Part shown: positions 18,872-59,567 of the stretch, in pieces
How positions within the stretch are numbered: the first letter of the stretch is position 1
How the letters are laid out: every line of letters starts with the position of its first letter
From: an uncultured Gammaproteobacteria bacterium
GTDB lineage: Bacteria > Patescibacteriota > Patescibacteriia > VMEV01 > CAYQCH01
Direction: 5' to 3'
NCBI GenBank assembly: GCA_964352335.1
Contig: CAYGRO010000008.1
Coordinates: forward strand, 1-62,758
Length of the DNA stretch: 62,758 bases
Made by a program: the position numbers and the translations under genes
Notes under the pieces: generated by a model
Told to the model about the DNA's origin: nothing
The model's database searches: none
The model's input: only the letters and a program-made list of their open reading frames with translations

Positions 18872-18898
18872 GCAGCCACGCTACCTCCGGCCCCCGAT

Positions 18899-18943: not shown

Positions 18944-18958
18944 CTCTCGGCTATCACA

Positions 18959-19835: not shown

Positions 19836-19874
19836 GAGCACCTCCTTTTCGGGGAGTGCTCGTTTTCCATTTCC
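19836..19874 (+). terminator. Rho-independent terminator inside the element
   Basis: Stem gagcacctcc/ggggagtgctc, followed by gttttccatttcc. Confidence 0.5.
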
Positions 19875-20004
19875 TGGTTTTCTCCTCCCGATACTCTGCC
19901 GGCGCCGCGTTAGCGCCTGGGCAGTCACGCGTTTGACTTTTGGGCAACCGGCGGGCAACCAAATTCTCAGCAATAATAAAAGCCCCTTAAAAAGGGACTT
20001 TTAC

Positions 20005-26800: not shown

Positions 26801-27077
26801 TTTTTGTAACAACTACACCACTTGTCTGATTTGTGATAACAAAGCTCAGTTGCGTCACGGGTGAAGCAGTAGTAGCTGATAAACTGACTATGTCACCTTG
26901 TTGAAACGTTTGTGAGGCAGAAGGTGAATTGATCGTAATAAAAGGTGCTGTTTGAGCTGCTGTAATTCCAGCAGAAGCCAATAAAAGAACAGCTGAATGG
27001 AACATTAATGTTAGTGAAACTAAAAATGCTCCCCAAAAACCGATATGAAAATTATAGATATGATGTCTACCCCTCAT
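23892..27077 (-). CDS. large cell-surface protein (Ig-like repeats, Cys-rich repeat, TSP3-type Ca-binding repeats, C-terminal TM anchor)
   Basis: 1061-aa low-GC ORF with a signal peptide, repeated beta-sandwich-like segments, CGNGTLNTGEQCDDGNNVSGDGCSAIC, DKDGDGLSDDAELRYGSDPNNPDSDDDGFTDGEE and a C-terminal hydrophobic helix. Confidence 0.8.
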   Translation of the reverse strand: MRGRHHIYNFHIGFWGAFLVSLTLMFHSAVLLLASAGITAAQTAPFITINSPSASQTFQQGDIVSLSATTASPVTQLSFVITNQTSGVVVTKNADVDPTFTNFTSSILLTEAADYKIDAIAVNPQTGSQVTQSTTIVVLSGVVLDVIWRSPSANSTITGNQDLTVAVNPAPQSVLFRFTSQSGSVQEFQGNASQGDEWTHSLDSTVLPDGAYTIVGVASLNGEETSSTSIQVNVQNTTAIQGTFSLSNPDQGQIVSGTNVSFTGSSSSVASNVNFQITPGASSAQDIISAVNSSGDSISFQSSFDSTTYPNGDYSVILFGTINGETVFSDVVGFTINNQATGTPPVITTNTLPSAQLGIAYSQTISATGGTTPLVWSVTSGFALPPSLSINGNTGAITGIPTTVGSYNLSFTVTDSANRTATKTFSLIVNPAPTPPTSCGNGTLNTGEQCDDGNNVSGDGCSAICTNEAPVPPNAPASLTITQPAVNTSLQGSNSLVIMTGSEAIAEPTVLLVNTAGQNVLAGISTKAFKPVQHNGNSIWHYLLDTTKHLNGSYSLRMVTTAQDDGATLNAGPITVTINNPAPVEENVFTGGSIVRPTNGQSTSGIVLIQAQISGAIKSVTFNLQTAANGTKIVTGKFNQAKNLYEATWNTAGIQAGAVILKTNIVTEGGQQATLPNRTFNLVAETAPVIIQAPTPSTPLTEPRPEEIIPTQVLENVDSNGQVLQIAIECQVVGIKTEAECKEYLTTRSIRILDEGEQEAVAGQLNDIVSRHIEFNDGTSTERDFSKPGQAQKNLSQPLSEILPINPKLARQSNFLISPSTKPPANIRRFVEQTVDAVLVIDKDGDGLSDDAELRYGSDPNNPDSDDDGFTDGEEVKNGFNPNGPGLLSITTAPTDIAILNNRPLDQPRFAGVIAETITVDGVTSLDVLENESNLNIRGKAEPNSFVTLYIYSSLPVVVTVQANQSGDWEYDFTHPLVDGKHDVYATVTNDTGKIVKKSRALSFFVQEAKAVNEEDFLNANLTVQDDSNIFLAYYLVGGLLIVLLGGVMFFYYLRAQKGFS

Positions 27078-27141: not shown

Positions 27142-27172
27142 GAAGCCCAACCGTTAATGCCGGTTGGGCTTC
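27142..27172 (-). terminator. Hairpin terminator of cassette H
   Basis: 12-bp stem gaagcccaaccg/cggttgggcttc. Confidence 0.5.
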
Positions 27173-27207
27173 GAATGTTTTACATGCCTGGAGAGGCATG
27201 CCCACGG

Positions 27208-29529
27208 TTAAGGCGTGGAAACGCCGTACTGTGTGGGACCGCCGCCGCTTCGACCGAGGTTGTAGGGCAGCAGAGCGCTAGTCGTGTCCGTGAAGGAGTG
27301 GTAGTACTTCGAGCTCACGCTGGGGCTCGAGACCTTCATGTCGACGACTTGCCGACCGACAGCCAGAGACACGTAGCTCGTAGCAGTCACGGAGACTGTC
27401 TTGGTAGCTCCACCATCGAACGGGATGATACGGAATTCCGCACCAGCTCCGCCCTGAACACCGAGAACGAATGCATTCATCCCAGGAGCACGGACCATCT
27501 CAACACCAAACTGATTGGTGCCAAGCGCCACACTCCCAAGGAAGTTGTAGCCGTTTGCGGGGTCATGGAAGGTATAGGAGCTCTCTCCTTGACGGATCAC
27601 CACAACGCGCAAGTCGTTGTTTTGGTCGCGGTATCCTTGAACACCGAGAACCTTGTTGGTACTTCCACCAGTAGTCTGTCGGGTTCCGACCTGCGGAGAC
27701 ACTCCCGTGCCGATGACGTAGACCCGGTGATCAGTGCCAGGACCAACCACACTCTGACCAGCCATCTCGACCCGGTACACGCTGTTCTCGAAGTCGAGGT
27801 ACATGCACGTAGCCTGAGGGGCGAACTGACCGAGGTCGGTCACGCTGTACACGCCGTTGTCCAGGCGAACCTGGAACAGTTTGCGCACCGTGCCACCAGC
27901 AACGATGAGGGCGTACTCGACGCCATCGGCGATGACCGTGTGGAGACCACAGACGTTCGCACTGCCAGCAGGAAGCTGCTGAGTAGCGACGTTGAAGTGG
28001 ACCTGAGTCTGGACCTGAGTCATGTCGTGGTTGAGCATCCACAGACGGTAGAAGCCCGAGGGCTCCTGCGTCAGGAATACCGGCCGACCGTTCTTGGTCG
28101 TCGTCATGAGCGAAGGCGACTGGTTCGTAGCCGGCGACGTGTTGATGTTGGTGCTAACCGCAGCCACACCTCCAGTCGCATCGACCTTGAACAGGTGAAC
28201 CTGGAACCCGGTGAAACCGAGACCCCAGACCGTCTTGCCGTCGTTCATGGCAGCGAACGAGCTTGCGGCAGCCCACTTGTGGCCGATCCCGGCGTAGATC
28301 TGGCGAAGGTTGTTCGCCTGACCGACAGCGTTGAGATCGTAACCCTGCATAGTGCCGTCGAAGTTGGTCGTCGTGTCGTCACCACCGTGCACCACCGTGC
28401 TACCGGTAGCGTGCGCATACTTGAGCGTCGGACCGACTCCTGTGACCTGAGCCTGCTCGAGCATGACCGTCGGGTTGTTCTTGTCGTACGCAGCCAGCGT
28501 GACAGAGAACGTCCCGGGGGTGCCCATCTTCGGGGCGTGGAACAGCAGGTGTCCGTCGTCGTTGATCATGACGGGGTACTCGACCCCGTTGACCCGCGCC
28601 TTCAGAATCCTGTTGACCATGTCCTTCTTGAAGTTGAGCCCACGGAGCTCGATCAGCTCGTTGCTCACTACCGTGAACACGTTTGCCTCAGTCTCGTTCC
28701 CGACGAGCGGGATACCGAGATTGGCCGCACCGATGATGGTGAGCGGATTGCTCACCGGCGGGTTGGTGCTGTTCACCGTCACCGTCGCAGTCGCGGTTCC
28801 GACGTTGCCGTCGGAGTCCGTGAGCGTCAGCTTGACGTTGAACGTGCCAACCGAGGTGTAGCTGTGGGTCGCCGAACCGCTGGTAGTGCTCTCGTTGGCG
28901 CCGTCGCCCCAGTCAATGAGACCGGAAACGTTGGAGCTGTCCGAGTCGTCGACCGTCCACGAAGCCGTGGTGGTCAGCGATCCAGTACCGCTGGTCACGC
29001 TCAGACCGAAGTTCTGGGCCTGCGGGTTGTCCTGCACCGTGATGGTGTACTCAGGAAACTCTGCGGACCCAGCTTGTCCGGTGACTCGGAAGACGTACTT
29101 GTACGCCCCCCCTTCGTTCGGCTTGTCCCACGTGATCTTCACGTTGAACAGGCGCGTCGCGGTCGATCCCGGAGAACCGGGAACCGTGATGCCCGCAGCG
29201 GTCGACTCCGTGACAGTGATCTGGAAGTCACCGGAGTTGAGCTGGGTGGGGTTGTTGCTGTTCTGGATGATCGAGACCATCCCAGCGTTGAGCGTTTCGG
29301 CCGAGTCCATCTCGACCTGGAACGTGACCTCGACCCCCTTGGGGGTACTCGAGGACACAACCGTGTCCTGGACCGAGCCTACCGCCTTGGGCTTGGTGGT
29401 GTTGCTGGGCGAAGTGCCCCCTCCACCACCACCTCCGCCACCGCCGCAACCTGCGGCGAAACTGGCGAGACCCATCACTACCGCGATGGATCCGATGGAC
29501 CAAAAGGCCCCACTCTTCTGACTCTTCAT
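27208..29529 (-). CDS. PKD-domain lipoprotein (GC-rich cassette H)
   Basis: 773-aa high-GC ORF. Start at MKSQKSG with the SD aggag. It has the lipobox LASFAAGC followed by Gly10, the PKD signature IDWGDG..THSYTSVGTFNVKLTLTDSDG, and a beta-rich C-terminal part. Confidence 0.8.
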   Translation of the reverse strand: MKSQKSGAFWSIGSIAVVMGLASFAAGCGGGGGGGGGGTSPSNTTKPKAVGSVQDTVVSSSTPKGVEVTFQVEMDSAETLNAGMVSIIQNSNNPTQLNSGDFQITVTESTAAGITVPGSPGSTATRLFNVKITWDKPNEGGAYKYVFRVTGQAGSAEFPEYTITVQDNPQAQNFGLSVTSGTGSLTTTASWTVDDSDSSNVSGLIDWGDGANESTTSGSATHSYTSVGTFNVKLTLTDSDGNVGTATATVTVNSTNPPVSNPLTIIGAANLGIPLVGNETEANVFTVVSNELIELRGLNFKKDMVNRILKARVNGVEYPVMINDDGHLLFHAPKMGTPGTFSVTLAAYDKNNPTVMLEQAQVTGVGPTLKYAHATGSTVVHGGDDTTTNFDGTMQGYDLNAVGQANNLRQIYAGIGHKWAAASSFAAMNDGKTVWGLGFTGFQVHLFKVDATGGVAAVSTNINTSPATNQSPSLMTTTKNGRPVFLTQEPSGFYRLWMLNHDMTQVQTQVHFNVATQQLPAGSANVCGLHTVIADGVEYALIVAGGTVRKLFQVRLDNGVYSVTDLGQFAPQATCMYLDFENSVYRVEMAGQSVVGPGTDHRVYVIGTGVSPQVGTRQTTGGSTNKVLGVQGYRDQNNDLRVVVIRQGESSYTFHDPANGYNFLGSVALGTNQFGVEMVRAPGMNAFVLGVQGGAGAEFRIIPFDGGATKTVSVTATSYVSLAVGRQVVDMKVSSPSVSSKYYHSFTDTTSALLPYNLGRSGGGPTQYGVSTP

Positions 29530-30055
29530 TTCAATCTCCTGTGACCTTCCGGTCGGATCCACGCGTTTACGGCGCTCGGCAGGGAGGAACATCCTCCCCT
29601 TCACCATCTTTAATTTTAAGGAACTTAATAACGTGATATACACGCGTCCACCCTATAGTGTACTCCATTTTAGGGATTTCGACACGGCAATCAGATCACA
29701 ATAGTATATTTTCGATGTTTTGTCAATATTTTAAGGCTAAAATTAGCACTGAATTTAAACGAACCTCCTTCCACTAAAGTAAAGCCTGTTTTTTGACTAA
29801 AGTTAGTACAAAACTGAGTGTTTCTTGTCGTCAAATAAAGACAACAGTAATAATAGGACAAAAAACCTCCTGATATCGTCAAATCCCAAGCCCTTTCTAT
29901 CAAAAATGTATACTGAATAACTGTGGATAAACTGCATATAATAACTGAATTATTTTTCACATCATCAAAGAGAATCTTTTTGTTGTCGAATTGTATGAAC
30001 TTTATTAAACTGTAATTTACAAAGTTAAAAAATAAATAACTAACTTATTCAAGCT

Positions 30056-45772: not shown

Positions 45773-45844
45773 GCGACCATAGCTCAGCGGTAGAGCACCA
45801 TGCTTATAACATGGAAGGCGACGGTTCGAATCCATCTGGTCGCA
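45773..45844 (+). tRNA. tRNA-Ile (anticodon UAU)
   Basis: Folded by hand: acceptor gcgacca/tggtcgc, D arm gctc/gagc, anticodon stem ccatg/catgg with loop ctTATaa, T arm gacgg-ttcgaat-ccatc with one C-A mismatch. CCA is not encoded. Confidence 0.75.
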
Positions 45845-45962
45845 CATTGGAGTTAAGTGAGAATTTTGTCCCCATAGCTATTGCAGTTGCGGAGAAAAAG
45901 GAGATTTTACTTCTATCAAGAAAATTGATCATACTAGTTGCAACCACCTTGAAACGACAACT

Positions 45963-46388: not shown

Positions 46389-47294
46389 ATGAAACCCTCT
46401 TCTTTTTTTCGAAAATCAACTCTCAAAGGAATAGTAATTTCCCTCTTGTTTTTAGTTAATTGCTCATCACTTCACGCAGTCACATTGGAAGAGTTAAGCG
46501 GCTATTTTCTCCTTGGGGATGAAACACATTCAGAAGCTTGGTATGTAAACCCTGCTGATCAAACAAGTTACTATTTAGGGTCATTAGATACAGCCTTTTT
46601 AGAATTACCAACATATGCAATCGGAATTTCAAATTCAGATTTAGCTAAAATCCCCATTAATGGAAGTGAAGAAACTGGGGATATTGAATTTAAACAAGCA
46701 ATGGCAGGTAAACTTCTTTTACAAGTAGAAGCAAGCGGTGAGCTTTGGTATGTTTCTCCAACTACTTTCGAGCGCTTTTTTCTTGCAAATGCGGAGATGG
46801 CGGTTTCTGTTATTATCTCTGAAGGCGCTTATATCTCAATTCTTGATGATGACCAAACCATTGATTCTCCAAGTTCGATCCCTCTTGTGGATGAACTTAT
46901 TGATGTAAATGAAGATCCTATCGAAGATATGCCAGACTCTGAAAATGGTGGGATAAATCTATTTATCTCCATTTATGAAGAAGATGGAATAACAAAAAGA
47001 GGTTATGGAGAAATGGCATATGATAATCAAACATACGGATTACTCGTTATGTTTCCTGAAGTTAATTTAGCTTCCGACTTACTCTCTGTTTATAGAGGAT
47101 GGGTCATCAATGATGAAACAGGTGCCTATGTTTATACAGGAGAGCTTACTTATGACTCTGGATACTGGATAAATGATTTTGAGCAAGATGTGGATTTATC
47201 GAGCTATACTCACTATGTCCTTACAAAAGACCCAATTCTTGCTGTATCTCCTATAAATACAATCTATGAAGGGTATTTCGAACCTCTTTCATAA
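46389..47294 (+). CDS. hypothetical secreted protein
   Basis: 301-aa low-GC ORF with a signal peptide. No family recognised. Confidence 0.6.
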   Translation: MKPSSFFRKSTLKGIVISLLFLVNCSSLHAVTLEELSGYFLLGDETHSEAWYVNPADQTSYYLGSLDTAFLELPTYAIGISNSDLAKIPINGSEETGDIEFKQAMAGKLLLQVEASGELWYVSPTTFERFFLANAEMAVSVIISEGAYISILDDDQTIDSPSSIPLVDELIDVNEDPIEDMPDSENGGINLFISIYEEDGITKRGYGEMAYDNQTYGLLVMFPEVNLASDLLSVYRGWVINDETGAYVYTGELTYDSGYWINDFEQDVDLSSYTHYVLTKDPILAVSPINTIYEGYFEPLS

Positions 47295-47325
47295 TAAATA
47301 AAAAAAGGCTCAAATGAGTCTTTTT

Positions 47326-49119
47326 TTATTTGTTATTCTTTTTTAGGTTTGTCTTCTTTTTTAACTCTTTCTTCTTTTTTTTCTCATGTGATTGATTTTT
47401 ATCATCATCAATTTCATGAATTTTTTGTTCAATATATTCTTCTACGGCATCTAAATCTTTTTGAATTTTTAATGAGGATTTCTTTTTTGTTTTTGTATTC
47501 ATCGTTTCAACCTCATTATGAAGATCATCTCTTAATAAGTTAAATGCACGATGAATTCCAACGAGAGCTTGGTTTGAATCATCTCGAACTCGATGTTTGA
47601 ATGCTAAAAACCGAGCTAATAAATACCAAATGATGATAATAAAGAGTATCCAAGCAATCCCCATCATCATAACAAGTAATCTAAAATTACTCTGCCAAAA
47701 TTCAGTAAACCCAGTTGGCATAACATGAATAGACACTATTTCAGATTCTGCGCTTAATGCTCCCCTTTGGTCCTGTGCTTGTAGCCAAATAGAATAATCT
47801 CCTGCACGCATTCCTTGGTCAGAAATGAAGGTTAAATTCCCTTCTCTATCACTTCTTGTAATCCAACGAATAGATGCCGTCCCTGATTCTTGCACCCAAA
47901 TGAAAATTGTTGCATTTGGAAATGCTTTTGCTTGTAGATAAAATGGCTCTCCTGATTCTAATTCTTCATGATAATCAATAATCTCAGGAGCTGGTAGAGA
48001 TTCAATCGTAAATTCCTTTGAGAGCAAAGATTTATTCCCCGCATAATCGATTGCCTCTAATTGCCCTATCAATTCTCCAGTAGTTAATGCTGGCGTTTCA
48101 TAATAGGAGCTTGTCTTACTTGCATTCCACTCTATAGGTTCTTGTCCATCGATTGAAAGTCGATAGAGTTGCACCCCAGAGGTTTTATCATTTGCAGAGA
48201 GATCAAACTTTACCCGCGGATTAGATAAATCATCAGATTGTATGATTTCTGCACGAAATTCCTGTGGAGCTTCTGTATCTACTCGGATTGCAAAGTGAGA
48301 AACTTCTCCCCACCCTGATTGATTTCTTAATTTTACATGAATGTACCAAATGCCATCAGTCAATGTTTTTTCTGCAGACGTGACTTCCCCTAAATTTGTA
48401 TTCGGTGGATTTGTAAATGGATCTTGGTCGATGAGATAACTTACTCCAGTAATACTGATTGGCAATGCCCAAGCTATTTTTGCTTCTGGTATTGCATACC
48501 ATTGTGTTTGATCTGGGTGTGTTATTGATGAAATAACTGGTGCATTTGGGGCAGAAGCTTGTGGTACAGGTTTTTCTTGTTCAGGAGCATTTGGTTCGGT
48601 AATTTCTGGAGGAGAAGTTCCAATAATCGTAAAATTAGCCCCACCAAGCCCAGATAAAATACTTGTCCCTTTTCCGTCATTGGCTAGAATACTTCCCGAT
48701 AAAAAGTTCACAGGAGCAGTTCCTGAGGATTTCGCTCTAAAATTAATGGTAATAACATTACCTGAAGCCGCCTGAAACCCAGGATTAAGAATAACCCCCT
48801 CAAATTGTATTGAGCCTGTTGCATTAGAGAAACTAGGTTCTCTCACCCATATTTGGATAATAGACCCACCGCGACTAATGCTTGTTACTTCTAATAAGTC
48901 AGTCGGAAAAGCAATAGTTCCACTTATCGCATTCATTGCTTGGTCGGGACTAGAAACGGAAACAGCAACAGCAAATGATTCTCCCGCATTAAATGTGCCT
49001 GAATTTGGAAAAAGATTTATGGAAGCTGCAAAAGTAAAAAAAGCAAATAAAAAGGAAGCAACAATTAAGATACTTGCCTTGAAAAAAGTACGGATTGAAA
49101 TGAATTTAGACATCCTCAT
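47326..49119 (-). CDS. cohesin-like domain surface protein with C-terminal TM anchor and Lys-rich tail
   Basis: Signal peptide, then NLFPNSGTFNAGESFAVAVSVSS..AISGTIAFPTDLLEV..IQFEGVILNPG (cohesin-like), beta-sandwich repeats, a TM helix and a KKKKELKKK tail. Confidence 0.75.
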   Translation of the reverse strand: MRMSKFISIRTFFKASILIVASFLFAFFTFAASINLFPNSGTFNAGESFAVAVSVSSPDQAMNAISGTIAFPTDLLEVTSISRGGSIIQIWVREPSFSNATGSIQFEGVILNPGFQAASGNVITINFRAKSSGTAPVNFLSGSILANDGKGTSILSGLGGANFTIIGTSPPEITEPNAPEQEKPVPQASAPNAPVISSITHPDQTQWYAIPEAKIAWALPISITGVSYLIDQDPFTNPPNTNLGEVTSAEKTLTDGIWYIHVKLRNQSGWGEVSHFAIRVDTEAPQEFRAEIIQSDDLSNPRVKFDLSANDKTSGVQLYRLSIDGQEPIEWNASKTSSYYETPALTTGELIGQLEAIDYAGNKSLLSKEFTIESLPAPEIIDYHEELESGEPFYLQAKAFPNATIFIWVQESGTASIRWITRSDREGNLTFISDQGMRAGDYSIWLQAQDQRGALSAESEIVSIHVMPTGFTEFWQSNFRLLVMMMGIAWILFIIIIWYLLARFLAFKHRVRDDSNQALVGIHRAFNLLRDDLHNEVETMNTKTKKKSSLKIQKDLDAVEEYIEQKIHEIDDDKNQSHEKKKKKELKKKTNLKKNNK

Positions 49120-49129
49120 TACTTAATTT

Positions 49130-50089
49130 TTATTCTTGTTTTTTCGGTATTTTGTATAAATGTGCATGTTGCCATAAGACGAGCAAAAGCACTGCTAAAA
49201 CGATTAAAACTGTTAATATTATACCCCATATTGCTTTTTCTGAATAGTGACCAAGTGGGTGCTGAGCTGGAAGTTGCACAATTCTTTCATTCCCAACTTT
49301 ATCAACAGCTTTGATATAAATATTTTTAGAAAGTGTTTGATCTTGTAATAAATGAGGGCTTACTACTTGGCTCCACTCTAGCTCTTCATTTGTATTTTTT
49401 GGGTCTACTTGCGTATCTGATTCATAGAGCTCGTAATGTGATACACCAACCCCTTTATCTTGAGTAGAGAAAACAATTGTTTTTTGTCCATTATTGAGAT
49501 TTGGGTCTTGAGTCAATATTGGAATGAAAATTTCTGGTGGTTCTGTATCATTTGCTTGAAGTACTTGTCGATTATCGTCATTAGAAGCGATACTTGTGAT
49601 TGTAAAGTTAAATGGCACATAATTTACATCAGCGGGAGTACCTAGGCCATCATGCAAAAGAACATGCATATTTTCCATCGTAATTTTACCTAAAAATGGA
49701 GATGCTGACTGCTTTCTAGAGGTATCATCTTTAATTTGGCCAATAAGCGAAAAGAGAAATGCTTTATTTCCTTCATACCCACCAGGGAAAATCCCAGCAA
49801 AACGAATACTATTATTTGATAATTGTTTAGGTGGTTCTACCCAAAAACTCACATAAGATCCACCCGTTCTAATATCTATAATAGAAACCAGCTCTTTTGG
49901 CAATCCAATCTCTCCATCAAATGCGTTTATAACCTCGTCGATACTATCAAGATAAACATCTAATTGAAAAAATCCTTTGGATGTAAAGGTTTGCGTATCT
50001 GTCTTCACATAATATCGAGCAGCAAAAGTAGGCTGAACGAAAAACAGAAAGAGAATGATACTTGTAAAAACAGTTTTAAAATAATTCAT
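49130..50089 (-). CDS. cohesin-like domain protein with C-terminal TM anchor
   Basis: Signal peptide, FQLDVYLDS..INAFDGEIGLPKELVSI..IRFAGIFPGG (cohesin-like) and a C-terminal TM helix. Confidence 0.7.
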   Translation of the reverse strand: MNYFKTVFTSIILFLFFVQPTFAARYYVKTDTQTFTSKGFFQLDVYLDSIDEVINAFDGEIGLPKELVSIIDIRTGGSYVSFWVEPPKQLSNNSIRFAGIFPGGYEGNKAFLFSLIGQIKDDTSRKQSASPFLGKITMENMHVLLHDGLGTPADVNYVPFNFTITSIASNDDNRQVLQANDTEPPEIFIPILTQDPNLNNGQKTIVFSTQDKGVGVSHYELYESDTQVDPKNTNEELEWSQVVSPHLLQDQTLSKNIYIKAVDKVGNERIVQLPAQHPLGHYSEKAIWGIILTVLIVLAVLLLVLWQHAHLYKIPKKQE

Positions 50090-50100
50090 AGATAACTTAA

Positions 50101-51114
50101 TTAACCAGTCCAGTAAAAAGCCATAATACTAAAATCTGTTAAATTAATTTGATTGTCTCCATTTAACCGTTCTGATTCTTTTGGTTCAAATTCTGCGCTT
50201 AACTCTTGCTCATACCAAAAAGCAGAAATAGAAAAGTCAATCAAGTTTACACGACAATCGCCATTTAAATCTGCATAAAAAGCACATCCGTCATCTGTCG
50301 TATTCAGCGTATCATCATTTCCAATGTCAAATGTAATTGTAGTACTATAGGTACTTACTCTTCCCTCATGAGTTGTTCTTGAATGGACTGAATATTTTCC
50401 TACAGCTAAAGGGGTGGTATCTAGTTGATAAGTATAAATCCCCTGAGTATTTGAGTTTGCGGTTACCGATAACTCCCTATTATCTGGAGTTTTTAGTATT
50501 AGTTCAACAATTGCATTTGGTGCCGTTTGTCCTGCTAATGATAGTAATTTCCCTTTTGCAACAATTAATTTATCAGAACGAATCGTTGGAGGAATGAATG
50601 CACCGGTTATATTGGTTAAAGCATCTTTTGTGATTTCAGTTGGAAATGTAACAAGGGTAGAACGAACAGTATTAATATCTTGAGAATAGAGAGAAAAGAC
50701 ATAATTCCCAGCACTTAAATCTTTTACATCAATGGTAAATTTACCCAATGCATTTGCTGGTATGGTAGAAACTATTTGCGAGTCTTTTAATAAAGTTACT
50801 TGTTGATTTGGATATCCTTGACCAGAAATAACAACATTTGTAATCGAAGTATCTCTTGGTCCAGGCCCTCCTACTCCACCCCCACCACCAGCAGGAGGAG
50901 CATTAAATTCATCTGTATCAGTGATAGAATCACAACCTGGATCATTTGGAAAATCGATTAAAGAATCTCCATCATTATCGACACCATCTGAACAAGCAAA
51001 GACTGAAATGATCTCTACTTGAAATTGAGAAGCTGGGGCAGCCAAAACAGTCTGCAATCCAAAAAACAATAGGAGAAATGAAAGAATGGCAATCGTGAAA
51101 AACCGAATATTCAT
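50101..51114 (-). CDS. secreted protein with C-terminal dockerin-like repeats
   Basis: Signal peptide, CSDGVDNDGDSLIDFPNDPGC, Ig-like repeats and two dockerin-type segments (DLNGDCRVNLIDFSISAFWY and LNGDNQINLTDFSIMAFYW). Confidence 0.7.
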   Translation of the reverse strand: MNIRFFTIAILSFLLLFFGLQTVLAAPASQFQVEIISVFACSDGVDNDGDSLIDFPNDPGCDSITDTDEFNAPPAGGGGGVGGPGPRDTSITNVVISGQGYPNQQVTLLKDSQIVSTIPANALGKFTIDVKDLSAGNYVFSLYSQDINTVRSTLVTFPTEITKDALTNITGAFIPPTIRSDKLIVAKGKLLSLAGQTAPNAIVELILKTPDNRELSVTANSNTQGIYTYQLDTTPLAVGKYSVHSRTTHEGRVSTYSTTITFDIGNDDTLNTTDDGCAFYADLNGDCRVNLIDFSISAFWYEQELSAEFEPKESERLNGDNQINLTDFSIMAFYWTG

Positions 51115-51238
51115 AAATACGTTGAACCCAGAAAATAAGAACTATTCTACACAATTCTTATACTTATAATAGCAAATGATTATTAAATCGTCATTTAGTT
51201 TTTTCTCATTGTTTGTTTATCTCTCTTCCTTTGAAAAA

Positions 51239-54200
51239 CTAGATCGCAACAATTGTTAACATCATATCGATCGCATAGGTATCAGAAACTTGCTCAGCAG
51301 GAATTGTTTGAGAAACATCAATATTTAAGATATCAAAATCACAGTCTGTTTCTGCACTCCCATTAGCAGAAGCCAAAGTGATTACATCTGTTATCCCCTC
51401 AGAATATGCAGAACTACTTCCCAATGATATTCCCGTATTAGAACAGATACCTTGAGCAACAATATTTCCAACTGTAGGGTTTATAGATAATTGCCCCCCT
51501 AAATTATCTAAATCAGCTCCGTCATTTGCATTTGCTGTAGGATCATTAAAATCAAAATCTGCTAGTCCGCCATCCCAGAAAGAAGTCGTTCCACTCAAAG
51601 CAGCGAGAGATAAAGACCATTGAGGGTTTGAGGTTGTATTTGTTACTCGAATACGTTCGATAAGTGTGCTTAGTGTTCCAATACTTGTTGTATCAGCAAA
51701 ACTGACTGAGATTGGAGAAAAAATAACAGCAGGATTCGCAACTGAGTTGCCACCACCATTTACAATATCAACGCTTAGCGAACCTGGATTTGTCGATATT
51801 TCAGGTAGTATTGTATAGTTGTCGAGTACAGAACCGGTTGATTGTACAGCTCTTAAACAGTATGTCTTATTACTGGGAGAATTATCTATCAAAGAAAAAT
51901 CCCAAAGACCATTTTGACCAGCAACTATTGTAGATTGATTATTTGAAAAATTATTGCTTTCTTCATATGATTGCGGAATCTGTGTTGAACTTGTTACCGG
52001 GTCGTTTAAATTGGGAGTTAACGCGTCTCCATCTGAAGGGGTTGTATTTGGATTAAATGCAATTTCTGTTGCACCTGTTACATCTACATAACTTTCTCCA
52101 ACAAATGAATTATCACAAGTACCAACACGCTCAGCAACCTGCAATTTTAATGTCTGAGTATTAATACTTGCATCTCGATTTAAAAAATCTATGACTAAAC
52201 GTAAACGAAACTCCTCTCCAACAACACTAAGCGTTGCAGGAGTATCTTGAGCAGCAAGCGGTGTACCAACATCAGTTGAATCAACATTTCCATAAAATCG
52301 GTATGTAGATTGTACAAGTTCTGTAGGGGCAATTGGCCACTCAACAACCTCGGTTCGATATGTCCTTGTCTGACCAGTATCGCTAATAAATAATTGGTAC
52401 TGCGTAGTAGAAATTAACTGAACCCCCATGATTGGACGAGGATAGGCTGTCCCACCACCAGTAGAACGATTATTGGTAAAAATAGAGCTATTCGATAAAC
52501 TAGAAATAGTTTGACCAATATTTACATTAACCGTAGATGGTTCTGCCCCACCAGATTGAGTCCCATTTGATCGTATAACATTCATCGTTGTTCCAGTTGT
52601 TTGTGTATTTTCGATCACCCAAGCGACTGAAGTATGTAAACTTGGAGTTGTTGCTCCAGATTGAATTTGATATGTAATTGTAGATGTATTGGAAAGATAG
52701 ACCTCGTGACCAAATTCATCTAATCCCTGTTGATCACTCCCAGCACGTTTTTGTACATGTAAAAAAGCACGAGATAAATCATTTACTGGAGTAATGGATT
52801 CTGTTTCATTTGTACCAGCAGAAGAATATGTATGCTCTGATCTTTGTATAAGCCAGTTTTCCCCAACAAACTCAACAACAGCCCAACTGACTATTGCCGC
52901 ATCACCACTAGACTCGCCTCTCGTAAAATCAATCTCATCATTTGCAAAATCCCATACGGCTGTAGATAAACCTGTATTATAGTCTGTTTGCCCTGTATCA
53001 GGCGTAGCTTGTCCAGTGATAAAAGGGACGATATCACCATCTGAAACAACCCCACCTATTGCACCAGTAGAAACCGTTGTATTAGCAGTACCATATGTTG
53101 ATATCCCCACATCATGAACAATTAACTCATTTGGGCCACCACTTACACCTACGTATTCAATAACTTCCCAAACCACAAATGAAGAGCCTGTAGCAGTAGA
53201 CGCTCTGCATAACTGAAAACTTGAAGTGAGATTCGTAGCAGCATTTACATAAATCATTACGTCATCAGATGCTTGAACTCCCCCTCCAGTATTATTTCCA
53301 GCTCCTGTATGATGTGTATTTGTTATTCGAACAAATGCACGTGAATCAGCTGAAGGAGAATCATAATCTGTTCCTGCTGTAAGCGTTGTACAAACTCCCG
53401 TCAATTGATTTGTTCCACGCTGAATTCGAAAATCATTGGCAAAACCAAAACGAGACTCTTCTGCAGATACGCTTGTTGTCGGTTCTGGGTCAGTATATCG
53501 ACGGATAAGAATGTTTCGGATGCGTGCTGCATCTTGTGCAACAATAACCCCCCATTCCCCAGAAGCTTCAACATCAGTACCAGCACCATCTGTCCCTGAT
53601 TTTGTTATTGCTTGAGAAGGATAACCTATTGGCCCCATGGTAGCAGAAACATCATTATCCCAATAACGTCCATTTGTTGAATTTACCCCCCAAATAGCCA
53701 AAGCTTGTTTTCTCCATTGATTTCCTGCTATAGCTGTCGCCCCCGCTCCATCTGGAGTGTCCATTACTGTTGTTGTTCTTCCCCCTCTGACAATTGAAAT
53801 GTCTTCTGCATATCCTGCATCAGGTTCAAATGGACTATCTGCTCTATTTGTTGCATAGTAATTATTCGAAGACTCCGTTGCTCCTGAACCAGAATCAAGT
53901 GTATATCTTCCTAATACCCCTGATGACATATCATTTGGATAAGCATCTAAATGAAAAAATTCCATTTCAATATAGGCATCACGCTCAGATGCCGAAGCCG
54001 AAGGAATTCTCATTGAATTAGTCACATTATCATTTGTATCGTATTCATAAAAATCAAAAAAACCATTATATGTAAAACTATCTGTACCACCAGTTCCGTG
54101 CCACTCATCTCCTCTCCCAAGAGTATAAGATGAAAGCCTATCAGATGTAGCATCATCATACCAAAGATAGACATTTGAAAGATCTGCTAGTGTTGTATTG

Positions 54201-54628
54201 ATCGTTGAGTTTCCATAGTAAACATAATAGTTATCGTCTATCGAAGAATCTGCTATTGCAGCTTGCAATTGAAAACGAATATCAGAGCTTGCATTATTAC
54301 AGTTAATAATATGTCGATCCAATTCGACCCAAACCGAACCACTCCAATACACCATACGTAAATCATCACAATCAGTTTGCATTTTTGTCGCAGATATTAA
54401 AGAAGCTGTATCAAATAGCACTCTTGCAGTATAACCATTATACCCATTGAAAGGAGCATTCGCGCCAGTTGTTACGGTTAATCTGTTTCTGTATAGATAT
54501 GCTTCATTCCACCAATTTCCAGAAGGAGCGATTGCCTGAAGGTAATCAGACTTTGTTTCTACACGAAAAATACTTGTAAGAACAAGTATTAAAATGATCA
54601 ATAGAAATATACCTTTTTGACGATTCAT
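51239..54628 (-). CDS. giant surface protein: DUF2341-like N-terminus plus WxL-like C-terminal module
   Basis: 1129-aa ORF. The N-terminus WWNEAYLYRNRLTV..DCDDLRMVYW is DUF2341-like. The C-terminal 190 aa or so (RIRVTNTTSNPQWSLSLAA ... SQTIPAEQ..YAIDMMLTIVAI) are shared with 54632-57010 and 58345-59052. Confidence 0.8.
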   Translation of the reverse strand: MNRQKGIFLLIILILVLTSIFRVETKSDYLQAIAPSGNWWNEAYLYRNRLTVTTGANAPFNGYNGYTARVLFDTASLISATKMQTDCDDLRMVYWSGSVWVELDRHIINCNNASSDIRFQLQAAIADSSIDDNYYVYYGNSTINTTLADLSNVYLWYDDATSDRLSSYTLGRGDEWHGTGGTDSFTYNGFFDFYEYDTNDNVTNSMRIPSASASERDAYIEMEFFHLDAYPNDMSSGVLGRYTLDSGSGATESSNNYYATNRADSPFEPDAGYAEDISIVRGGRTTTVMDTPDGAGATAIAGNQWRKQALAIWGVNSTNGRYWDNDVSATMGPIGYPSQAITKSGTDGAGTDVEASGEWGVIVAQDAARIRNILIRRYTDPEPTTSVSAEESRFGFANDFRIQRGTNQLTGVCTTLTAGTDYDSPSADSRAFVRITNTHHTGAGNNTGGGVQASDDVMIYVNAATNLTSSFQLCRASTATGSSFVVWEVIEYVGVSGGPNELIVHDVGISTYGTANTTVSTGAIGGVVSDGDIVPFITGQATPDTGQTDYNTGLSTAVWDFANDEIDFTRGESSGDAAIVSWAVVEFVGENWLIQRSEHTYSSAGTNETESITPVNDLSRAFLHVQKRAGSDQQGLDEFGHEVYLSNTSTITYQIQSGATTPSLHTSVAWVIENTQTTGTTMNVIRSNGTQSGGAEPSTVNVNIGQTISSLSNSSIFTNNRSTGGGTAYPRPIMGVQLISTTQYQLFISDTGQTRTYRTEVVEWPIAPTELVQSTYRFYGNVDSTDVGTPLAAQDTPATLSVVGEEFRLRLVIDFLNRDASINTQTLKLQVAERVGTCDNSFVGESYVDVTGATEIAFNPNTTPSDGDALTPNLNDPVTSSTQIPQSYEESNNFSNNQSTIVAGQNGLWDFSLIDNSPSNKTYCLRAVQSTGSVLDNYTILPEISTNPGSLSVDIVNGGGNSVANPAVIFSPISVSFADTTSIGTLSTLIERIRVTNTTSNPQWSLSLAALSGTTSFWDGGLADFDFNDPTANANDGADLDNLGGQLSINPTVGNIVAQGICSNTGISLGSSSAYSEGITDVITLASANGSAETDCDFDILNIDVSQTIPAEQVSDTYAIDMMLTIVAI

Positions 54629-54631
54629 CTA

Positions 54632-57010
54632 TTAAACAGCGACAATTGTTAATGTCATATCAATATTATAGTCACTAGCAGCAGGTTGCTCTAATGGAAT
54701 TGTTTGACTCATATCAAGATCTGTAAAATCCCAAAAACAATTGGTATCTGCCGAACCGGTTGATGAGCTTAATGTAATAGAATCGATTACTGCCTCTGAA
54801 AAGGCCCCAGAAGATCCTAGTGACACTCCTGTGGTGGTACAACCTCCTTCTGGTGTTATTGTTCCACCAGATGGGTCAATGGTTAATTGCCCACCAACAG
54901 AATCTGTATCTCCCCCATCGCCTGCACTAGCAGTCGGGTCATTATAATCAAAATCTGTAGAAGTACTATCCCAAAGTGTTGTGTTTCCACTAGTGGCCGC
55001 AATAGTTAATGACCATTGAGGATTTACCGTTGTATTTGTGACTCGAATACGTTCAGCAGAAATACCCAATATTCCTGTTGTTGTTTGATCTGCAAAATCA
55101 AAACTGATTGGTGTGAATTGAACAACAGGACTAGCAACCGTGCTTCCTCCTGAATCAACAATATCAACCGACAAATAACCTGCAGTTGTTACTTCAGGTA
55201 TTTGAGAATAATTATCTAATAAAGTTCCATCTGCCTCTACAACTCGAAGACAATAATACTCGCCAAAATCGGTTGTATCTTGTAAAGAAAAATCCCAAAG
55301 ACCATCTTGACCAGCAGCAATCGTGGCAACTGTATTTGTAAAATTATTCGCCTCTTCATAGTCTTGATTAATAATCGTATTCGCAGAAGTAGGGTCATTT
55401 GCATTTGCTGTTAAATTATCACCATCTGCAGGTGTACCATTAAAATAAGCTATTGGTGTTGCACCGGTGACATCAGCATATGTTTCTCCTGTAAAACTAG
55501 TGTCGCATGTACCTGAACGAACAGCATATTGCAATTTAAAGTTTTCTAATCCAATTGGCACACTAGACTCTGTTACCCCAATGAGAAGCCTTAAGCGGAA
55601 AGTTTGCCCTATAGAAGTCAATAAAGGTGGGGTATTTTGAGCTGCTAATGGTGTCCCAACATTGGTAGAAGCAGCTGTTGTGTACATGCGCCAGTTACTT
55701 TGTGTATATTCAGGGCTTTGAATTTGAGAAAAATCAATGCCTTGTATCCAGGCAGCAAGAGTATCTCCTGAACGTCTTCTTTCTAATCGAATATTCGTCG
55801 CGCTTGTATATCTTGCAGAAAATATCGGACGAGGAAATGAATTAACTGTCGTCCCAGATGTATTAAATGACAATGCCATTCTTGGGCTTGTAGCAGAGTC
55901 AACCGTTTGATCTATTGTTAAGCTCGCATTATTCCCATCTGCTAAAAAACGATAATCTACAGCCAAATCTGGATGAGTTAATGCATACACCTGAAAATCT
56001 TTATCATCAGTAAACTCACTTCCTACAGCAACGGTAGATTCATTTGCATTTTGTGTAACACCATTACCAAGCGTCACAACAACCCCTTCTGAACCATCTC
56101 CCACACCATTATCTTCAGACGTTCCTGTCCCCCACACCCAAGTATTAGCTCGTGCAACTGAAGTTATTGCGACTGTGTCATATTCGCCCGCTGAATTGAT
56201 TCCATTTCCTCCATTATTCCCTGCTAGATTAACTCTCTGCACCCCCCATGCTGCCCCCCATTGAACAGCCATAACAGTACTAACAGCACCTTGCACGGCA
56301 ATCGAAGTATTATCTCTCGTCCAAGAAATGGTATTCGTAGAAGATGGTATATATTTTACCCAACAACTATTATGCCTTCCTGTTTGTGAAGCAACCGTCT
56401 CACAACCAGCTCCATTAAACCCACCCATGAGCATGACTTTAGATAAATTTGTCCATGCTACTCCCGTAGTATCACTTCCGGAAATACTGTTGCCAGTATG
56501 GGTGAGATTAACAACATCTATCAATTGAAACCCTGAATTTGTGCAATCAAGTAAACATTCAACAACAGTAACAACTCCATACCATTCATTGTTATTATTA
56601 TCACGAGAGAAATCTAATTCATCAGTTGCCCCTGATGTAGCTAAATCACCAGTACCAAATGGGTCACCAACAAGTCTCATATAGTTTTCATCAGGCCCCC
56701 TGTTTCCTCCCGTACCAGTTCCTGCGCCGTCACTCCCACGAACCATGACAAAATAGTTTGCAACCAAATCTTGGCCCAATGTCAATGTATACGTTGTCCC
56801 TGTAAAATCGGCACTTCCATCATCATCTAAAAAATACTCTGTTATGCGAAATGTTTGTTGTGAATCTGCAAGGGCAGTATCAATATTTGGAGAATAAAAA
56901 GAAGGTAAGTGAAGATTATATACTGTGATATCAGAAAACGCCCCTGCGATTAAGGCAAAGACAATAAACACAAAAAAAACATTGCGAAAAAAAGTTTGTT
57001 TCATTTTCAA
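54632..57010 (-). CDS. large surface protein with WxL-like C-terminal module
   Basis: 792-aa ORF. The C-terminal 350 aa or so are paralogous to the 1129-aa neighbour (PQWSLTIAA ... SQTIPLEQPAASDYNIDMTLTIVAV). Confidence 0.8.
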   Translation of the reverse strand: MKMKQTFFRNVFFVFIVFALIAGAFSDITVYNLHLPSFYSPNIDTALADSQQTFRITEYFLDDDGSADFTGTTYTLTLGQDLVANYFVMVRGSDGAGTGTGGNRGPDENYMRLVGDPFGTGDLATSGATDELDFSRDNNNNEWYGVVTVVECLLDCTNSGFQLIDVVNLTHTGNSISGSDTTGVAWTNLSKVMLMGGFNGAGCETVASQTGRHNSCWVKYIPSSTNTISWTRDNTSIAVQGAVSTVMAVQWGAAWGVQRVNLAGNNGGNGINSAGEYDTVAITSVARANTWVWGTGTSEDNGVGDGSEGVVVTLGNGVTQNANESTVAVGSEFTDDKDFQVYALTHPDLAVDYRFLADGNNASLTIDQTVDSATSPRMALSFNTSGTTVNSFPRPIFSARYTSATNIRLERRRSGDTLAAWIQGIDFSQIQSPEYTQSNWRMYTTAASTNVGTPLAAQNTPPLLTSIGQTFRLRLLIGVTESSVPIGLENFKLQYAVRSGTCDTSFTGETYADVTGATPIAYFNGTPADGDNLTANANDPTSANTIINQDYEEANNFTNTVATIAAGQDGLWDFSLQDTTDFGEYYCLRVVEADGTLLDNYSQIPEVTTAGYLSVDIVDSGGSTVASPVVQFTPISFDFADQTTTGILGISAERIRVTNTTVNPQWSLTIAATSGNTTLWDSTSTDFDYNDPTASAGDGGDTDSVGGQLTIDPSGGTITPEGGCTTTGVSLGSSGAFSEAVIDSITLSSSTGSADTNCFWDFTDLDMSQTIPLEQPAASDYNIDMTLTIVAV

Positions 57011-57084
57011 GGACTTATTACTTCTGTATAGGGTAGTATATCAGGCTTAAATAAAGCTTGCATCTTATAAAAATGGGGGGGGCA

Positions 57085-58338
57085 TCAAAAATCTTCTTCA
57101 GAGCTCTTATTTAGTCTTTGGTTAGAATCTTTTGATGACTTATTTTTTGGAATTGTTTTTTCCGCTTCTCCTTTTTCTTCTGGAGGGACAATAATATCTT
57201 GTCCTTTATGCAAGGTATATGGTGGGGTAAGGTTATTTGCTTTTGCTAATACTTTCCATGATACAGCATGTTTTTCTGCAATCGTTTTAATATCATCATT
57301 TGTTTTAACCTCATAAGCCACCCATGTTTTTTTCACCCAGCTTTTTCTTTTTTGTACGATAAAGATAAACGTAAAAATACCAAGAATAATCGCCAAAGTA
57401 GCTAATTCAATCAATAACGCTGGCAATGCTGGTTTACTAAAATACCAATAAGACTCTCCCGTTAATCGTTCGATCTCACCAGAGCGCGTACCAATTTCGG
57501 TTTCTGGATTGGGGTCATATTCTGCAGAAAGAGTCGCATTATACCACCCACCCCAAAAAGGTTTTTCCACTTCAAAATTTAATTCTGAGGCATCACCTCT
57601 GAGAATGGTATATTCTCCCCCATGCTGACTAATTTCTCTCCCGAAAACATTCGTTGTCTTGATAATGATATTTGTATCTGTAGAAACATTCCCGATATTC
57701 TTAATCAATGAAGTATATAAAAAACCTGGCTGATTTTTTCTTGTTTGAATTGTAAAACCAGCAAGCTCTAATTTTCTAATAAGCTGACCAGGAACTGTTA
57801 TAGCGACACGTAAACCCGTTCTAAATGATAAATGCATTCCTGCAGGTCTATCCTCATCTACTTCTCTATCATCTTTTTCTTGAATGAGAATACAACCATT
57901 TTGCTCCCCTACATCTGCATTATCTGGAACCGCAATGGTAAAATTGACTACTTCATTTGTCCCAGGCTCTAAAGTAACTTCGTTTTTTTCTAAAGTAATC
58001 CAAGAACCTACCCCTGTTTGAGTATCTAGGAGTTGTTTACAAGCAAAGCCACCAGAAGAGGAAGGTGTTGCATCTGCAGCATAGACAAGAAGTGTTTTTG
58101 TTTCTGCATCATTATTAATAACTCGAATACCATCTAGTTTTTCATCACCAGGTTCGAGTACATGTACGAAAATAGACTCTGTTCTTGGATTGTCTGCCCG
58201 AGGGTATGCTGGTCTTCCACCAGTACCTCTATATTGAACAGCTTGTGCTGGCACAACAAAAATAAAGCTTAGCGCCAAAAACAGGGTTAGTTTAAAACCC
58301 TGTTTTATAAATTTTTCTGTGGAGAAAAGATGATTCAT
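57085..58338 (-). CDS. DUF916/DUF3324-like surface-complex protein with TM helix and C-terminal LysM
   Basis: Signal peptide, then RPAYPRADNPRTESIFVHVLEPGDEKLDGIRVINND..LLVYAADATP (DUF916-like), a TM helix near residue 300 followed by QKRKSWVKK, then the LysM YEVKTNDDIKTIAEKHAVSWKVLAKANNL..LHKGQDIIVP. Confidence 0.7.
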   Translation of the reverse strand: MNHLFSTEKFIKQGFKLTLFLALSFIFVVPAQAVQYRGTGGRPAYPRADNPRTESIFVHVLEPGDEKLDGIRVINNDAETKTLLVYAADATPSSSGGFACKQLLDTQTGVGSWITLEKNEVTLEPGTNEVVNFTIAVPDNADVGEQNGCILIQEKDDREVDEDRPAGMHLSFRTGLRVAITVPGQLIRKLELAGFTIQTRKNQPGFLYTSLIKNIGNVSTDTNIIIKTTNVFGREISQHGGEYTILRGDASELNFEVEKPFWGGWYNATLSAEYDPNPETEIGTRSGEIERLTGESYWYFSKPALPALLIELATLAIILGIFTFIFIVQKRKSWVKKTWVAYEVKTNDDIKTIAEKHAVSWKVLAKANNLTPPYTLHKGQDIIVPPEEKGEAEKTIPKNKSSKDSNQRLNKSSEEDF

Positions 58339-58344
58339 GTGTAT

Positions 58345-59052
58345 TTAAGAAGCAACAACGCTTAATACCATATCAATATCGTAGTCAGAAGCCGCAGGTT
58401 GCTCCGCTGGGATTGTTTGGGTTACATCTACATCTTGTAATGTATAGTCACCAATGTCATCAGCAGCTGCTGCTGCAGTTATCAATGTAATGCTATCTGT
58501 TGCACCTTCACTAAAAGCAGATGAACCACCTAGTGTAATATTGGTTGTCACACAACTTGAACAAGCTCCTACAGCAAGTGTTCCTCCAGAAGGATCTACA
58601 GATAATTGCCCACCAAATGAATCTGCATCTGCACCATCGGTACATCCACCTGTCGTTGGGTCGTTAAAGTCAAAGTCTGTACCAGCACTATCCCATACAG
58701 CTGTTGTTGCTGAAGCAGCTAAAGAAGCTGTCCAACCACTATCTGCTGCATCAGGATTTGTTACATAAATTTGTTCTGTTGCCGTACCAAAGACACCAGC
58801 CGCACCTGGAGTTTGGCAAGTGAAACTAAATGTTAATGCTCCAAAGACTACTGTAGGAGAAGCAACTGTAACAAATCCGGCATCGACAATGTCGATAGCT
58901 AAAGTCCCAGGATTAATTGTGATTTGGAAATTAGAAGTATCTGCAGCCAAAGCAGCTCCTGTTGTTCCTAGGCTGATTGTTAAAATAAGCGAAATAACCA
59001 AAGCTGAGAATGTATTGGTTTTCGCTAAGACGTTTCTCCACACACGTTTCAT
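58345..59052 (-). CDS. small WxL-like domain surface protein
   Basis: About 235 aa, starting at MKRVWRNVLAKTN with a signal peptide (an alternative start at 59100 is possible). It consists almost entirely of the shared C-terminal module (SGWTASLAAS ... TQTIPAEQPAASDYDIDMVLSVVAS). Confidence 0.75.
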   Translation of the reverse strand: MKRVWRNVLAKTNTFSALVISLILTISLGTTGAALAADTSNFQITINPGTLAIDIVDAGFVTVASPTVVFGALTFSFTCQTPGAAGVFGTATEQIYVTNPDAADSGWTASLAASATTAVWDSAGTDFDFNDPTTGGCTDGADADSFGGQLSVDPSGGTLAVGACSSCVTTNITLGGSSAFSEGATDSITLITAAAAADDIGDYTLQDVDVTQTIPAEQPAASDYDIDMVLSVVAS

Positions 59053-59225
59053 AGCGTTTAGTCTTGAGGCAGACCCAAATAAACAGATCAACTCAAACAA
59101 GAAAAAAATAATAAAATGATTTCATTAAGATTATATCACATATCTAAAAGAAGTTATCCCCACCTGACAAAATTTCCTTTATAAAATGTTCTTTATGAAA
59201 CCGACAATAAAAAATCAACCAAATT

Positions 59226-59567
59226 TTATTGATTCGTATTTAGTTTTAGTATAAAACCCGAAGAAGAAATCGCTTTAATTTTAACAGCAGGCTCAACTTT
59301 TTTTCGTATGCGAGAAACATGCATATTTAAAGCATGACTATTCGTAGAATATTGTGAAAAAGCATGAAATTCAAGGTCTTCTTTTTTAACAAAAATACGA
59401 GAATGTAGTAAGAGATATAAAAATATTCTATATTCTGTCTTTGTCAATGATATCTGACGATTATCTATCTTGATACTTTTTTCAGACAAATCTGCGGTAA
59501 CTGAACCAATACGTAACTCTTTCTGGGAAAATAAAAGACAAAGCGCTGCTCGGATATTACTACCCAA
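59226..59567 (-). CDS. stand-alone OmpR/PhoB-type winged-helix DNA-binding protein (no receiver domain)
   Basis: ISLTKTEYRIFLYLL ... ALNMHVSRIRKKV ... GFILK matches Trans_reg_C. The only in-frame start is TTG at 59567, so the 5' end is uncertain. Confidence 0.65.
   Translation of the reverse strand: MGSNIRAALCLLFSQKELRIGSVTADLSEKSIKIDNRQISLTKTEYRIFLYLLLHSRIFVKKEDLEFHAFSQYSTNSHALNMHVSRIRKKVEPAVKIKAISSSGFILKLNTNQ

Follow-up and report, generated by a model that had tools for sequence, protein, structure and literature searches.

What could an uncultured patescibacterium build at its surface from seven adjacent genes, all of which encode exported proteins? Patescibacteria account for a large share of all bacterial diversity, and their way of life is believed to be attachment to other microbes; to our knowledge, little is known of how they present adhesins besides type IV pili. 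The stretch analysed here, contig CAYGRO010000008.1 of assembly GCA_964352335.1 (62,758 nt, referred to below as the window), is titled as an uncultured Gammaproteobacteria bacterium and placed in Patescibacteriota by GTDB. On its minus strand lies an operon, here g1 to g7, encoding a small secreted protein (g1), a membrane protein with a DUF916 domain (g2), two large secreted proteins that end in the same module as g1 (g3 and g4), a dockerin protein (g5) and two membrane-anchored proteins with cohesin-type domains (g6 and g7). We think it reasonably likely that these genes together specify a system for displaying proteins at the cell surface, assembled non-covalently in the manner of WxL/Csc systems but in a version found only in Patescibacteria.

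The proteins encoded by g1 (58345..59052, 235 aa), g3 (54632..57010, 792 aa) and g4 (51239..54628, 1129 aa) end in one shared module of about 190 aa, as a first-pass annotation made from the sequence had noticed. Over this module g1 shares 41-43% identity with the C-termini of g3 and g4, which score 231 and 209 bits, respectively, with the g1-family profile. In g1 the module (residues 52-235) follows directly on a signal peptide (residues 1-36) and an N-terminal tail, TSNFQITINPGTL (residues 37-51, 58900-58944). Starting at a TTG codon would lengthen the g1 reading frame to 251 aa (59100..58345), but translation probably begins at the ATG at 59052, because homologues are about 233-237 aa long and database entry P0001 is the 235-aa form. 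The large proteins carry the module at residues 597-792 of g3 (54635-55222) and 929-1129 of g4 (51242-51844), in g3 behind a variable N-terminal region and a middle domain (about 430-596), and in g4 behind a unique N-terminal region of about 700 aa and the same middle domain. The stretch of 438 aa over which g3 and g4 are 50% identical (E 8e-129) includes this extra domain.

A search of 5.8 billion proteins returned 708 relatives of g1, none of which contained a Pfam domain. The top 120 were about 230 aa long and 58-89% identical to g1, and the named relatives belonged to Patescibacteria throughout (Kerfeld-, Falkow-, Peregrini-, Dojkabacteria and others). When the module profile was run against 1.84 billion cluster representatives (clustered at 50% identity), 712 families were found, and in 147 of the 150 best representatives the module was located at the C-terminus. 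These 150 comprised 42 small proteins (300 aa or fewer) and 108 larger ones (maximum 2069 aa), 59 of them longer than 700 aa. Because the module ends so many proteins, both small and large, it is a widespread C-terminal tag of secreted Patescibacteria proteins. No Pfam or NCBIfam model matched the module, and nothing meaningful emerged when the module profile, g3 and g4 were each searched against PDB sequences. These homologues and families define a conserved, phylum-wide cluster in which a single C-terminal domain is the common tag of an entire set of variable surface proteins, and the shared module could be used as a handle for picking candidate host-binding proteins from metagenomes.

The gene next to g1, g2 (57085..58338, 417 aa), encodes a protein resembling the WxL-interacting proteins (WxLIPs) of Firmicutes. 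Its signal peptide is followed by a DUF916 domain (residues 46-153, 57880-58203), a second beta domain (about 180-295), a transmembrane helix (310-328, 57355-57411, mean hydropathy 2.59) and a LysM domain (342-385, 57184-57315). The window copy scores 26.9 bits on WxLIP_PGBD/DUF916 (PF06030), just below the gathering threshold of 27.3, over model positions 8-120 of 121. All 32 relatives that were scanned match both PF06030 (best E 1.8e-9) and LysM, and several are annotated as DUF916 by NCBI. Furthermore, residues 64-274 of g2 align with residues 21-245 of a Paenibacillus WxLIP, spanning both ectodomains (E 2e-7).

Conservation of the cluster was examined in one genome per GTDB species, which yielded 78 loci; the taxonomic labels used for these are record titles as given, and some titles of metagenome-assembled genomes name other phyla. 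Of the 78 loci, 71 contained g2, which in 58 of these 71 came immediately after g1. Where at least 9 kb of downstream sequence was available (42 loci), g2 was found in 40, at least two module genes were found in 40, the core of a small protein, g2 and a large protein was retained in 40, and g5, g6 and g7 were also present in 19. In every complete locus from other genomes (22 of 22) the order was g1-g2-large protein(s)-g5-g6-g7, with all genes on the same strand, a recurrence which argues that the arrangement is not due to chance and which bears out the proposal that the seven genes are co-conserved. Loci with the g5-g7 extension bore the labels Falkow-, Magasanik- and Colwellbacteria, Paceibacterota and others; no extension was observed among loci of the Gracilibacteria/Peribacteria, Kerfeld-, Dojka- or Levybacteria. 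The flanking genes were not kept across loci, so the cluster itself, rather than a larger island, is the conserved unit. By its published definition, a WxL cluster contains one or more WxLIPs and two or more WxL proteins in a span of four genes (PMC10599100); the cluster described here likewise combines a DUF916 protein with at least two proteins bearing an association domain, that domain not being PF13731. In the proteome Pfam tables of Southlakia, one cultured saccharibacterium, there were no PF06030, cohesin or dockerin entries. An essential "dockerin" protein of Southlakia, SEML1_0315 (PMC10633639), was considered as a counterpart and rejected, being a lone 927-aa gene and not this cluster.

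Within the cluster, g1 was the best-conserved gene, with a median identity of 59% and up to 72% across classes, compared with about 50% for g2, 39% for g5 and 33% for g6. A close relative (L085), in which g1 is 82% identical and the flanking genes are the same, encodes a single large protein where the window has two, g4 being absent. Its g3 orthologue is 59% identical and apparently split by a frameshift into 686 and 95 aa (L085:9017-11318), and an additional 150-aa open reading frame (ORF) consisting of a cohesin only lies between g5 and g6 (L085:12563-13015). These differences indicate that the cargo and the anchors vary around a fixed core.

Downstream of the core, g5 (50101..51114, 337 aa) encodes a secreted candidate adaptor composed of a signal peptide, a short tail (ASQFQVEII, residues 28-36, 51007-51033), an acidic double-disulfide repeat (38-64), a Gly-rich linker, two Ig-like domains and a C-terminal type I dockerin (278-337, 50104-50283). 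The two dockerin repeats quoted in the first-pass annotation are present exactly as given. The window copy scores 20.4 bits on Dockerin_1 (PF00404; threshold 22.9), over one repeat only. Among its orthologues, 23 of 24 match Dockerin_1 (best E 6.3e-9) and 23 of 24 match Big_6, and the g5-family profile matches type I dockerins of known structure in alignments that cover both repeats (2y3n_B, 1.9e-6; 1daq, 1.8e-4). All g5 orthologues terminate in ...DFSIMAFYWTG.

The cohesin-like N-terminal domains proposed earlier for the two anchored proteins were also confirmed. In g7 (47326..49119, 597 aa) a signal peptide is followed by a cohesin domain (residues 42-148, 48676-48996) that scores 25.6 bits on Pfam Cohesin (PF00963), above the gathering threshold of 24.1, and 9 of 16 orthologues match the same model (best E 1.8e-7). 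The remainder of g7 consists of a Pro-rich linker, Ig-like domains (Big_13, 401-460), a transmembrane helix (479-497, 47629-47685) and a Lys-rich cytoplasmic tail. The smaller g6 (49130..50089, 319 aa) has a signal peptide, a cohesin-like domain (about 25-165), an Ig-like domain, a transmembrane helix (287-305, 49175-49231) and a short basic tail. Its window copy gave no direct Pfam match. However, the g6 and g7 families align with an hhalign probability of 99.96% (E 5.7e-39) over the cohesin-like and following Ig-like domains, which identifies them as paralogues, and the g6-family profile matches scaffoldin cohesins of Ruminococcus flavefaciens (5aoz, 1.4e-4).

A Kyte-Doolittle scan detected an N-terminal hydrophobic segment in 7/7 proteins, in agreement with the leaders noted in the first pass, and a second, C-proximal transmembrane helix in g2, g6 and g7. 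No such helix was found in g1, g3, g4 or g5, and these four are therefore predicted to be released beyond the membrane. In the display system that we propose, g2 would be a type I membrane protein whose DUF916 ectodomain corresponds to the WxL-interacting protein of Firmicutes. The g1 protein would supply the module alone, and g3 and g4 would join large, variable N-terminal regions to it. On the cell surface, their modules would attach them to g2 and to one another, and the variable parts of g3 and g4 would therefore point outward as candidate adhesins, possibly serving in attachment to a host. The layered scaffold with a giant fibre, and its use in episymbiotic attachment, put forward in the first pass are likewise conjectural. 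A second anchor, present in this lineage and in about half of the related loci, would be formed by g5, g6 and g7. Held in the membrane by their C-terminal helices, g6 and g7 would expose their N-terminal cohesin domains, into which the C-terminal dockerin of g5 would plug, and g5 in turn would contact the module/DUF916 core through an N-terminal TSNFxIxI tail like that on mature g1.

This last contact is suggested by the motif (A/S)xTSNFx(I/Q)(T/E)I, which stands directly after the signal peptide in both g1 and g5 orthologues. Given this common tail, both proteins may dock it as a strand on one receptor within the core. In addition, three short g5-like proteins combine the TSNF tail with the acidic Cys domain and lack a dockerin (L016:17551-18180, L038:17339-18136 and L059:9311-9856). 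Their genes lie downstream in three loci that have neither g6 nor g7, and the N-terminal unit of g5 thus tracks the core. The assembly is probably Ca2+-dependent, to judge from the EF-hand-like loops of the dockerin, a DNDGD repeat in g5 and a near-invariant acidic loop in the module (DFDFNDP...DGADAD).

Several results weigh against the display reading. The first-pass annotation had likened the module to the WxL domain, and this identification was not confirmed: PF13731 matched none of g1, g3 and g4 at E<=1, and none of 42 diverse relatives even at E<=10. For a profile comparison, a genuine WxL family was obtained through the DUF916 neighbour in Paenibacillus urinalis, where the DUF916 gene is followed by a 189-aa protein matching PF13731 (30.1 bits; gathering threshold 25) and then by a large protein with the same C-terminus. 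Compared at full length with this family by hhalign, the module reached a probability of 4-5%. Given these two results, homology to WxL is not established and the resemblance may be convergent. The DUF3324 half of the earlier DUF916/DUF3324 call for g2 was likewise not confirmed, its DUF916 half being retained: PF11797 (DUF3324) matched neither g2, nor its isolated second domain, nor any of the 32 relatives. The second domain of the Paenibacillus WxLIP, which aligns with g2, scores 20.2 bits on PF11797. A cleaved leader and a KRK cluster after the helix place the LysM domain of g2 on the predicted cytoplasmic side, a position that would fit poorly with a simple role as a peptidoglycan anchor; LysM follows the helix in g2 and in all 32 relatives, whereas firmicute WxLIPs end soon past the helix and have no LysM (PMC10599100). 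The conservation of g1 is unusually high in comparison with the small WxL proteins of Firmicutes. The N-terminal parts of g3 and g4 matched nothing in Pfam or in PDB sequence searches, and no recognisable adhesin domain was found in them.

A distant homology between the module and WxL is nevertheless plausible. The hhalign match spans only 21 columns, located at the first Trp motif (IYVTNPDAADSGWTASLAAS in the module of the Candidate Phyla Radiation (CPR); LRAIDDRGNGAGWAYSVAAT in the Paenibacillus WxL family), which in the module reads GW[ST][LAV]. The score of this motif, 23.5, exceeded those of all 200 column shuffles (mean 12.6, maximum 20.7). The C-terminal strands are in register, AASDYDIDMVLSVVAS of the module with AGTYKSVFTYTATSGI of WxL, and score 12.2 compared with 7.3 +/- 1.8 for shuffles, 4 of 150 of which reached 12.2. 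Here the second-motif register Y-x3-hydrophobic-T-hydrophobic-T-hydrophobic is kept, with Leu or Met in place of the WxL Trp (CPR consensus G-S-Y-S-I-D-M-T-L-T-V-T-A). Both motif regions align with the WxL profile in the same order. An end-to-end match from the hhalign "-glob" mode was meaningless and was discarded. A second hhalign alignment had hinted that the module might lack the last WxL strand; this was ruled out by a tail-only alignment and by actinobacterial C-termini (GTYSATLTVTAI). A functional analogy to WxL is well supported by the architecture, in that the module is C-terminal, occurs as a small domain-only form (g1) and as large multi-domain forms (g3 and g4), and is encoded adjacent to DUF916.

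Searches with the g2 ectodomain (tblastn) recovered annotated DUF916 genes in Actinobacteria and Paenibacillus, including on plasmids, and the CPR module profile gave no significant match in the actinobacterial and Paenibacillus loci. In the Actinobacteria, DUF916 genes were observed paired with WxL-like proteins on an Arthrobacter plasmid (L002:5251-6828) and in Embleya (L084:3285-6912). Of these two WxL-like partners, one is small and has a PF13731 score of 20.4 bits, and the second, 788 aa in length, ends in GTYSATLTVTAI. These pairs indicate that WxL-type clusters extend past Firmicutes in more than one direction.

Among the closest known systems are the WxL/Csc clusters of Lactobacillales and Bacillales, represented by csc of L. 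plantarum, WxL loci A-C of E. faecium and the elr operon of E. faecalis (Hassan & Williamson, PMC9772566, PMC10599100). As in these, a small secreted protein consisting of the domain alone is encoded side by side with large C-terminal carriers and a DUF916 protein whose transmembrane helix is C-terminal, and signal peptides are found throughout. Beyond the differences in domain matches and in g2 already described, the patescibacterial cluster departs from them in the Met/Leu of the second motif, in a Cys-bonded, acidic Ca-loop-like insertion within the module, in its strongly conserved small protein, in having no LPxTG partner, and in the attached cohesin-dockerin trio. The host phylum also differs, being Patescibacteria and not Firmicutes; more than 91% of WxL proteins are reported to be firmicute (PMC9772566).

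One alternative refines the display reading more than it opposes it, namely that the products form a fibre (pilus) by donor-strand complementation. In such a fibre, g1 would polymerise head to tail, the N-terminal tail of each subunit completing the beta-sandwich of the next. With the acceptor module only, g3 and g4 would be distal tip adhesins; with the donor tail only, g5 would be a base terminator fastened through its dockerin to the cohesins of g6 and g7, and g2 would be a membrane-bound chaperone or an alternative base. The high conservation of g1 fits this proposal, as does the behaviour of its tail. An AlphaFold2 model of g1 from a shallow alignment was unusable (predicted local distance difference test, pLDDT, 57); a diverse alignment gave a confident all-beta monomer (pLDDT 88.1, predicted template modelling score 0.76). 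Residues 37-51 fall outside the fold of this model, yet residues 39-51 are nearly invariant, and the TSNFxIxI tail recurs at the head of the g5 orthologues. In published AlphaFold2 models, moreover, a DUF916 strand is inserted into WxL and completes its sandwich (Hassan et al., PMC10599100).

Foldseek comparison of the g1 model with PDB and BFVD gave no match at E<=1e-3. The best matches were chaperone-usher pilins and an archaeal cannula subunit, but they are weak (E >= 0.017, template modelling score 0.3-0.49, root-mean-square deviation >10 A), and beta-sandwiches match promiscuously. The strand after the tail (Q-I-T-I..G.L) is also internal to the g3/g4 module, neither an usher nor a chaperone is encoded in the cluster, and Patescibacteria are not known to make such a fibre. 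Compared with chaperone-usher pili, TasA, archaeal bundling pili and Pyrodictium cannulae (PMC9674648, PMC9245690, bioRxiv 10.1101/2024.12.30.630787), the cluster shares a small, conserved, predicted beta-sandwich subunit with a strand-like N-terminal tail, larger proteins with that domain at their C-terminus, as in the tip adhesin FimH, and Ca-binding features, as in cannulae. It differs in having no significant structural or sequence match to these fibres and neither an usher nor a periplasmic chaperone, and polymerisation is hypothetical here. The tail, the weak pilin matches and the published DUF916-WxL strand insertion make the fibre a reasonable refinement, which we nonetheless regard as unlikely. 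Somewhat less likely still is its fully specified form, a chaperone-free, Ca2+-dependent g1 fibre tipped by g3 and g4 and fastened by both the g5-g6/g7 joint and the DUF916-LysM protein. If true, it could represent a host-attachment organelle for episymbiotic, ultra-small bacteria.

The LysM domain raises a further possibility, that the cluster serves the maintenance of the cell envelope as an S-layer-like coat or a peptidoglycan-associated scaffold, in which LysM and DUF916 would tie g1 to the wall. The presence of LysM in all g2 relatives scanned, the annotation of DUF916 as peptidoglycan-binding (Pfam; PMC10599100) and the strong conservation of g1 would be consistent with such a lattice. 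However, LysM is predicted to lie on the cytoplasmic side, and the large proteins vary between close relatives in both number and sequence, as is typical of adhesins and not of a coat. The cluster is also not universal in Patescibacteria, PF06030 being missing from the Southlakia tables. On this evidence an envelope lattice appears improbable. A miniature cellulosome-like complex, with polysaccharide-degrading enzymes tethered by cohesin-dockerin pairs, is highly improbable even though both module types are present and carbohydrate utilisation was the original proposal for Csc clusters (PMC1534035), because Pfam and NCBIfam scans found no glycoside hydrolase, carbohydrate esterase, carbohydrate-binding module or other enzyme domain in the seven proteins, and the sole dockerin bearer, g5, is built of Ig-like domains, with no second dockerin protein found when the g5-family profile was run against all window ORFs.

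The duplicated, Ca-binding C-terminal dockerin of g5 and the exposed, cell-bound cohesins do resemble those of cellulosomes in Ruminococcus flavefaciens and Clostridium thermocellum. The cluster differs from cellulosomes in lacking enzymes, in anchoring its cohesin carriers by a single C-terminal transmembrane helix and not by S-layer homology domains or sortase, in having one dockerin protein for two cohesin proteins, and in being genetically fused to a WxL-type cluster. Non-cellulosomal cohesin and dockerin modules are widespread in bacteria and archaea. As a separate observation, a 1061-aa secreted protein elsewhere in the window (23892-27077, minus strand), with He_PIG, bacterial TSP3 and Big_13 domains, matches the g5-family profile (2.8e-12); its Ig-like domains, rather than any dockerin, seem to account for this match.

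Our literature search found no paper connecting WxL or DUF916 with Patescibacteria. Understood as a display system, the cluster would extend the WxL/DUF916 principle of surface assembly beyond Firmicutes. It also couples WxL/DUF916 genetically to a cohesin-dockerin pair, two systems that have until now been treated as separate.

The seven co-directional genes described in the first pass are separated, from g1 to g7, by gaps of 6, 74, 3, 124, 11 and 10 nt, and the GC content of the region is 0.34-0.41. Between g7 and a convergent gene lies a hairpin with a 20-bp stem and T-runs on both sides (47292..47335), likely the bidirectional terminator of the operon. Immediately upstream of g1, a 113-aa winged-helix protein is encoded on the same strand (59226..59567; Pfam Trans_reg_C, 40.5 bits). 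It is a stand-alone OmpR/PhoB-type winged helix lacking a receiver domain and could possibly be a local regulator; tblastn searches found 0 matches to it in the 78 related loci. The window also encodes valyl- and tyrosyl-tRNA synthetases (ValRS, TyrRS), translation initiation factor IF-2 and the chromosome-maintenance protein SMC, which argues that the DNA is chromosomal and rules out its being a mobile element.

Two further features of the window lie outside the operon. A tRNA-Ile gene with the anticodon UAU is present on the plus strand (45773-45845); such tRNAs are uncommon in bacteria, where AUA is mostly decoded by a modified CAU tRNA. Two patches at about 18000-20000 and 28000-30000 are GC-rich (0.56-0.57) in a window that elsewhere has 34-40% GC, and the second of these contains an ORF with a PKD domain (29643..27208, minus strand), which overlaps a long ORF in antisense orientation (27157..29544, plus strand).

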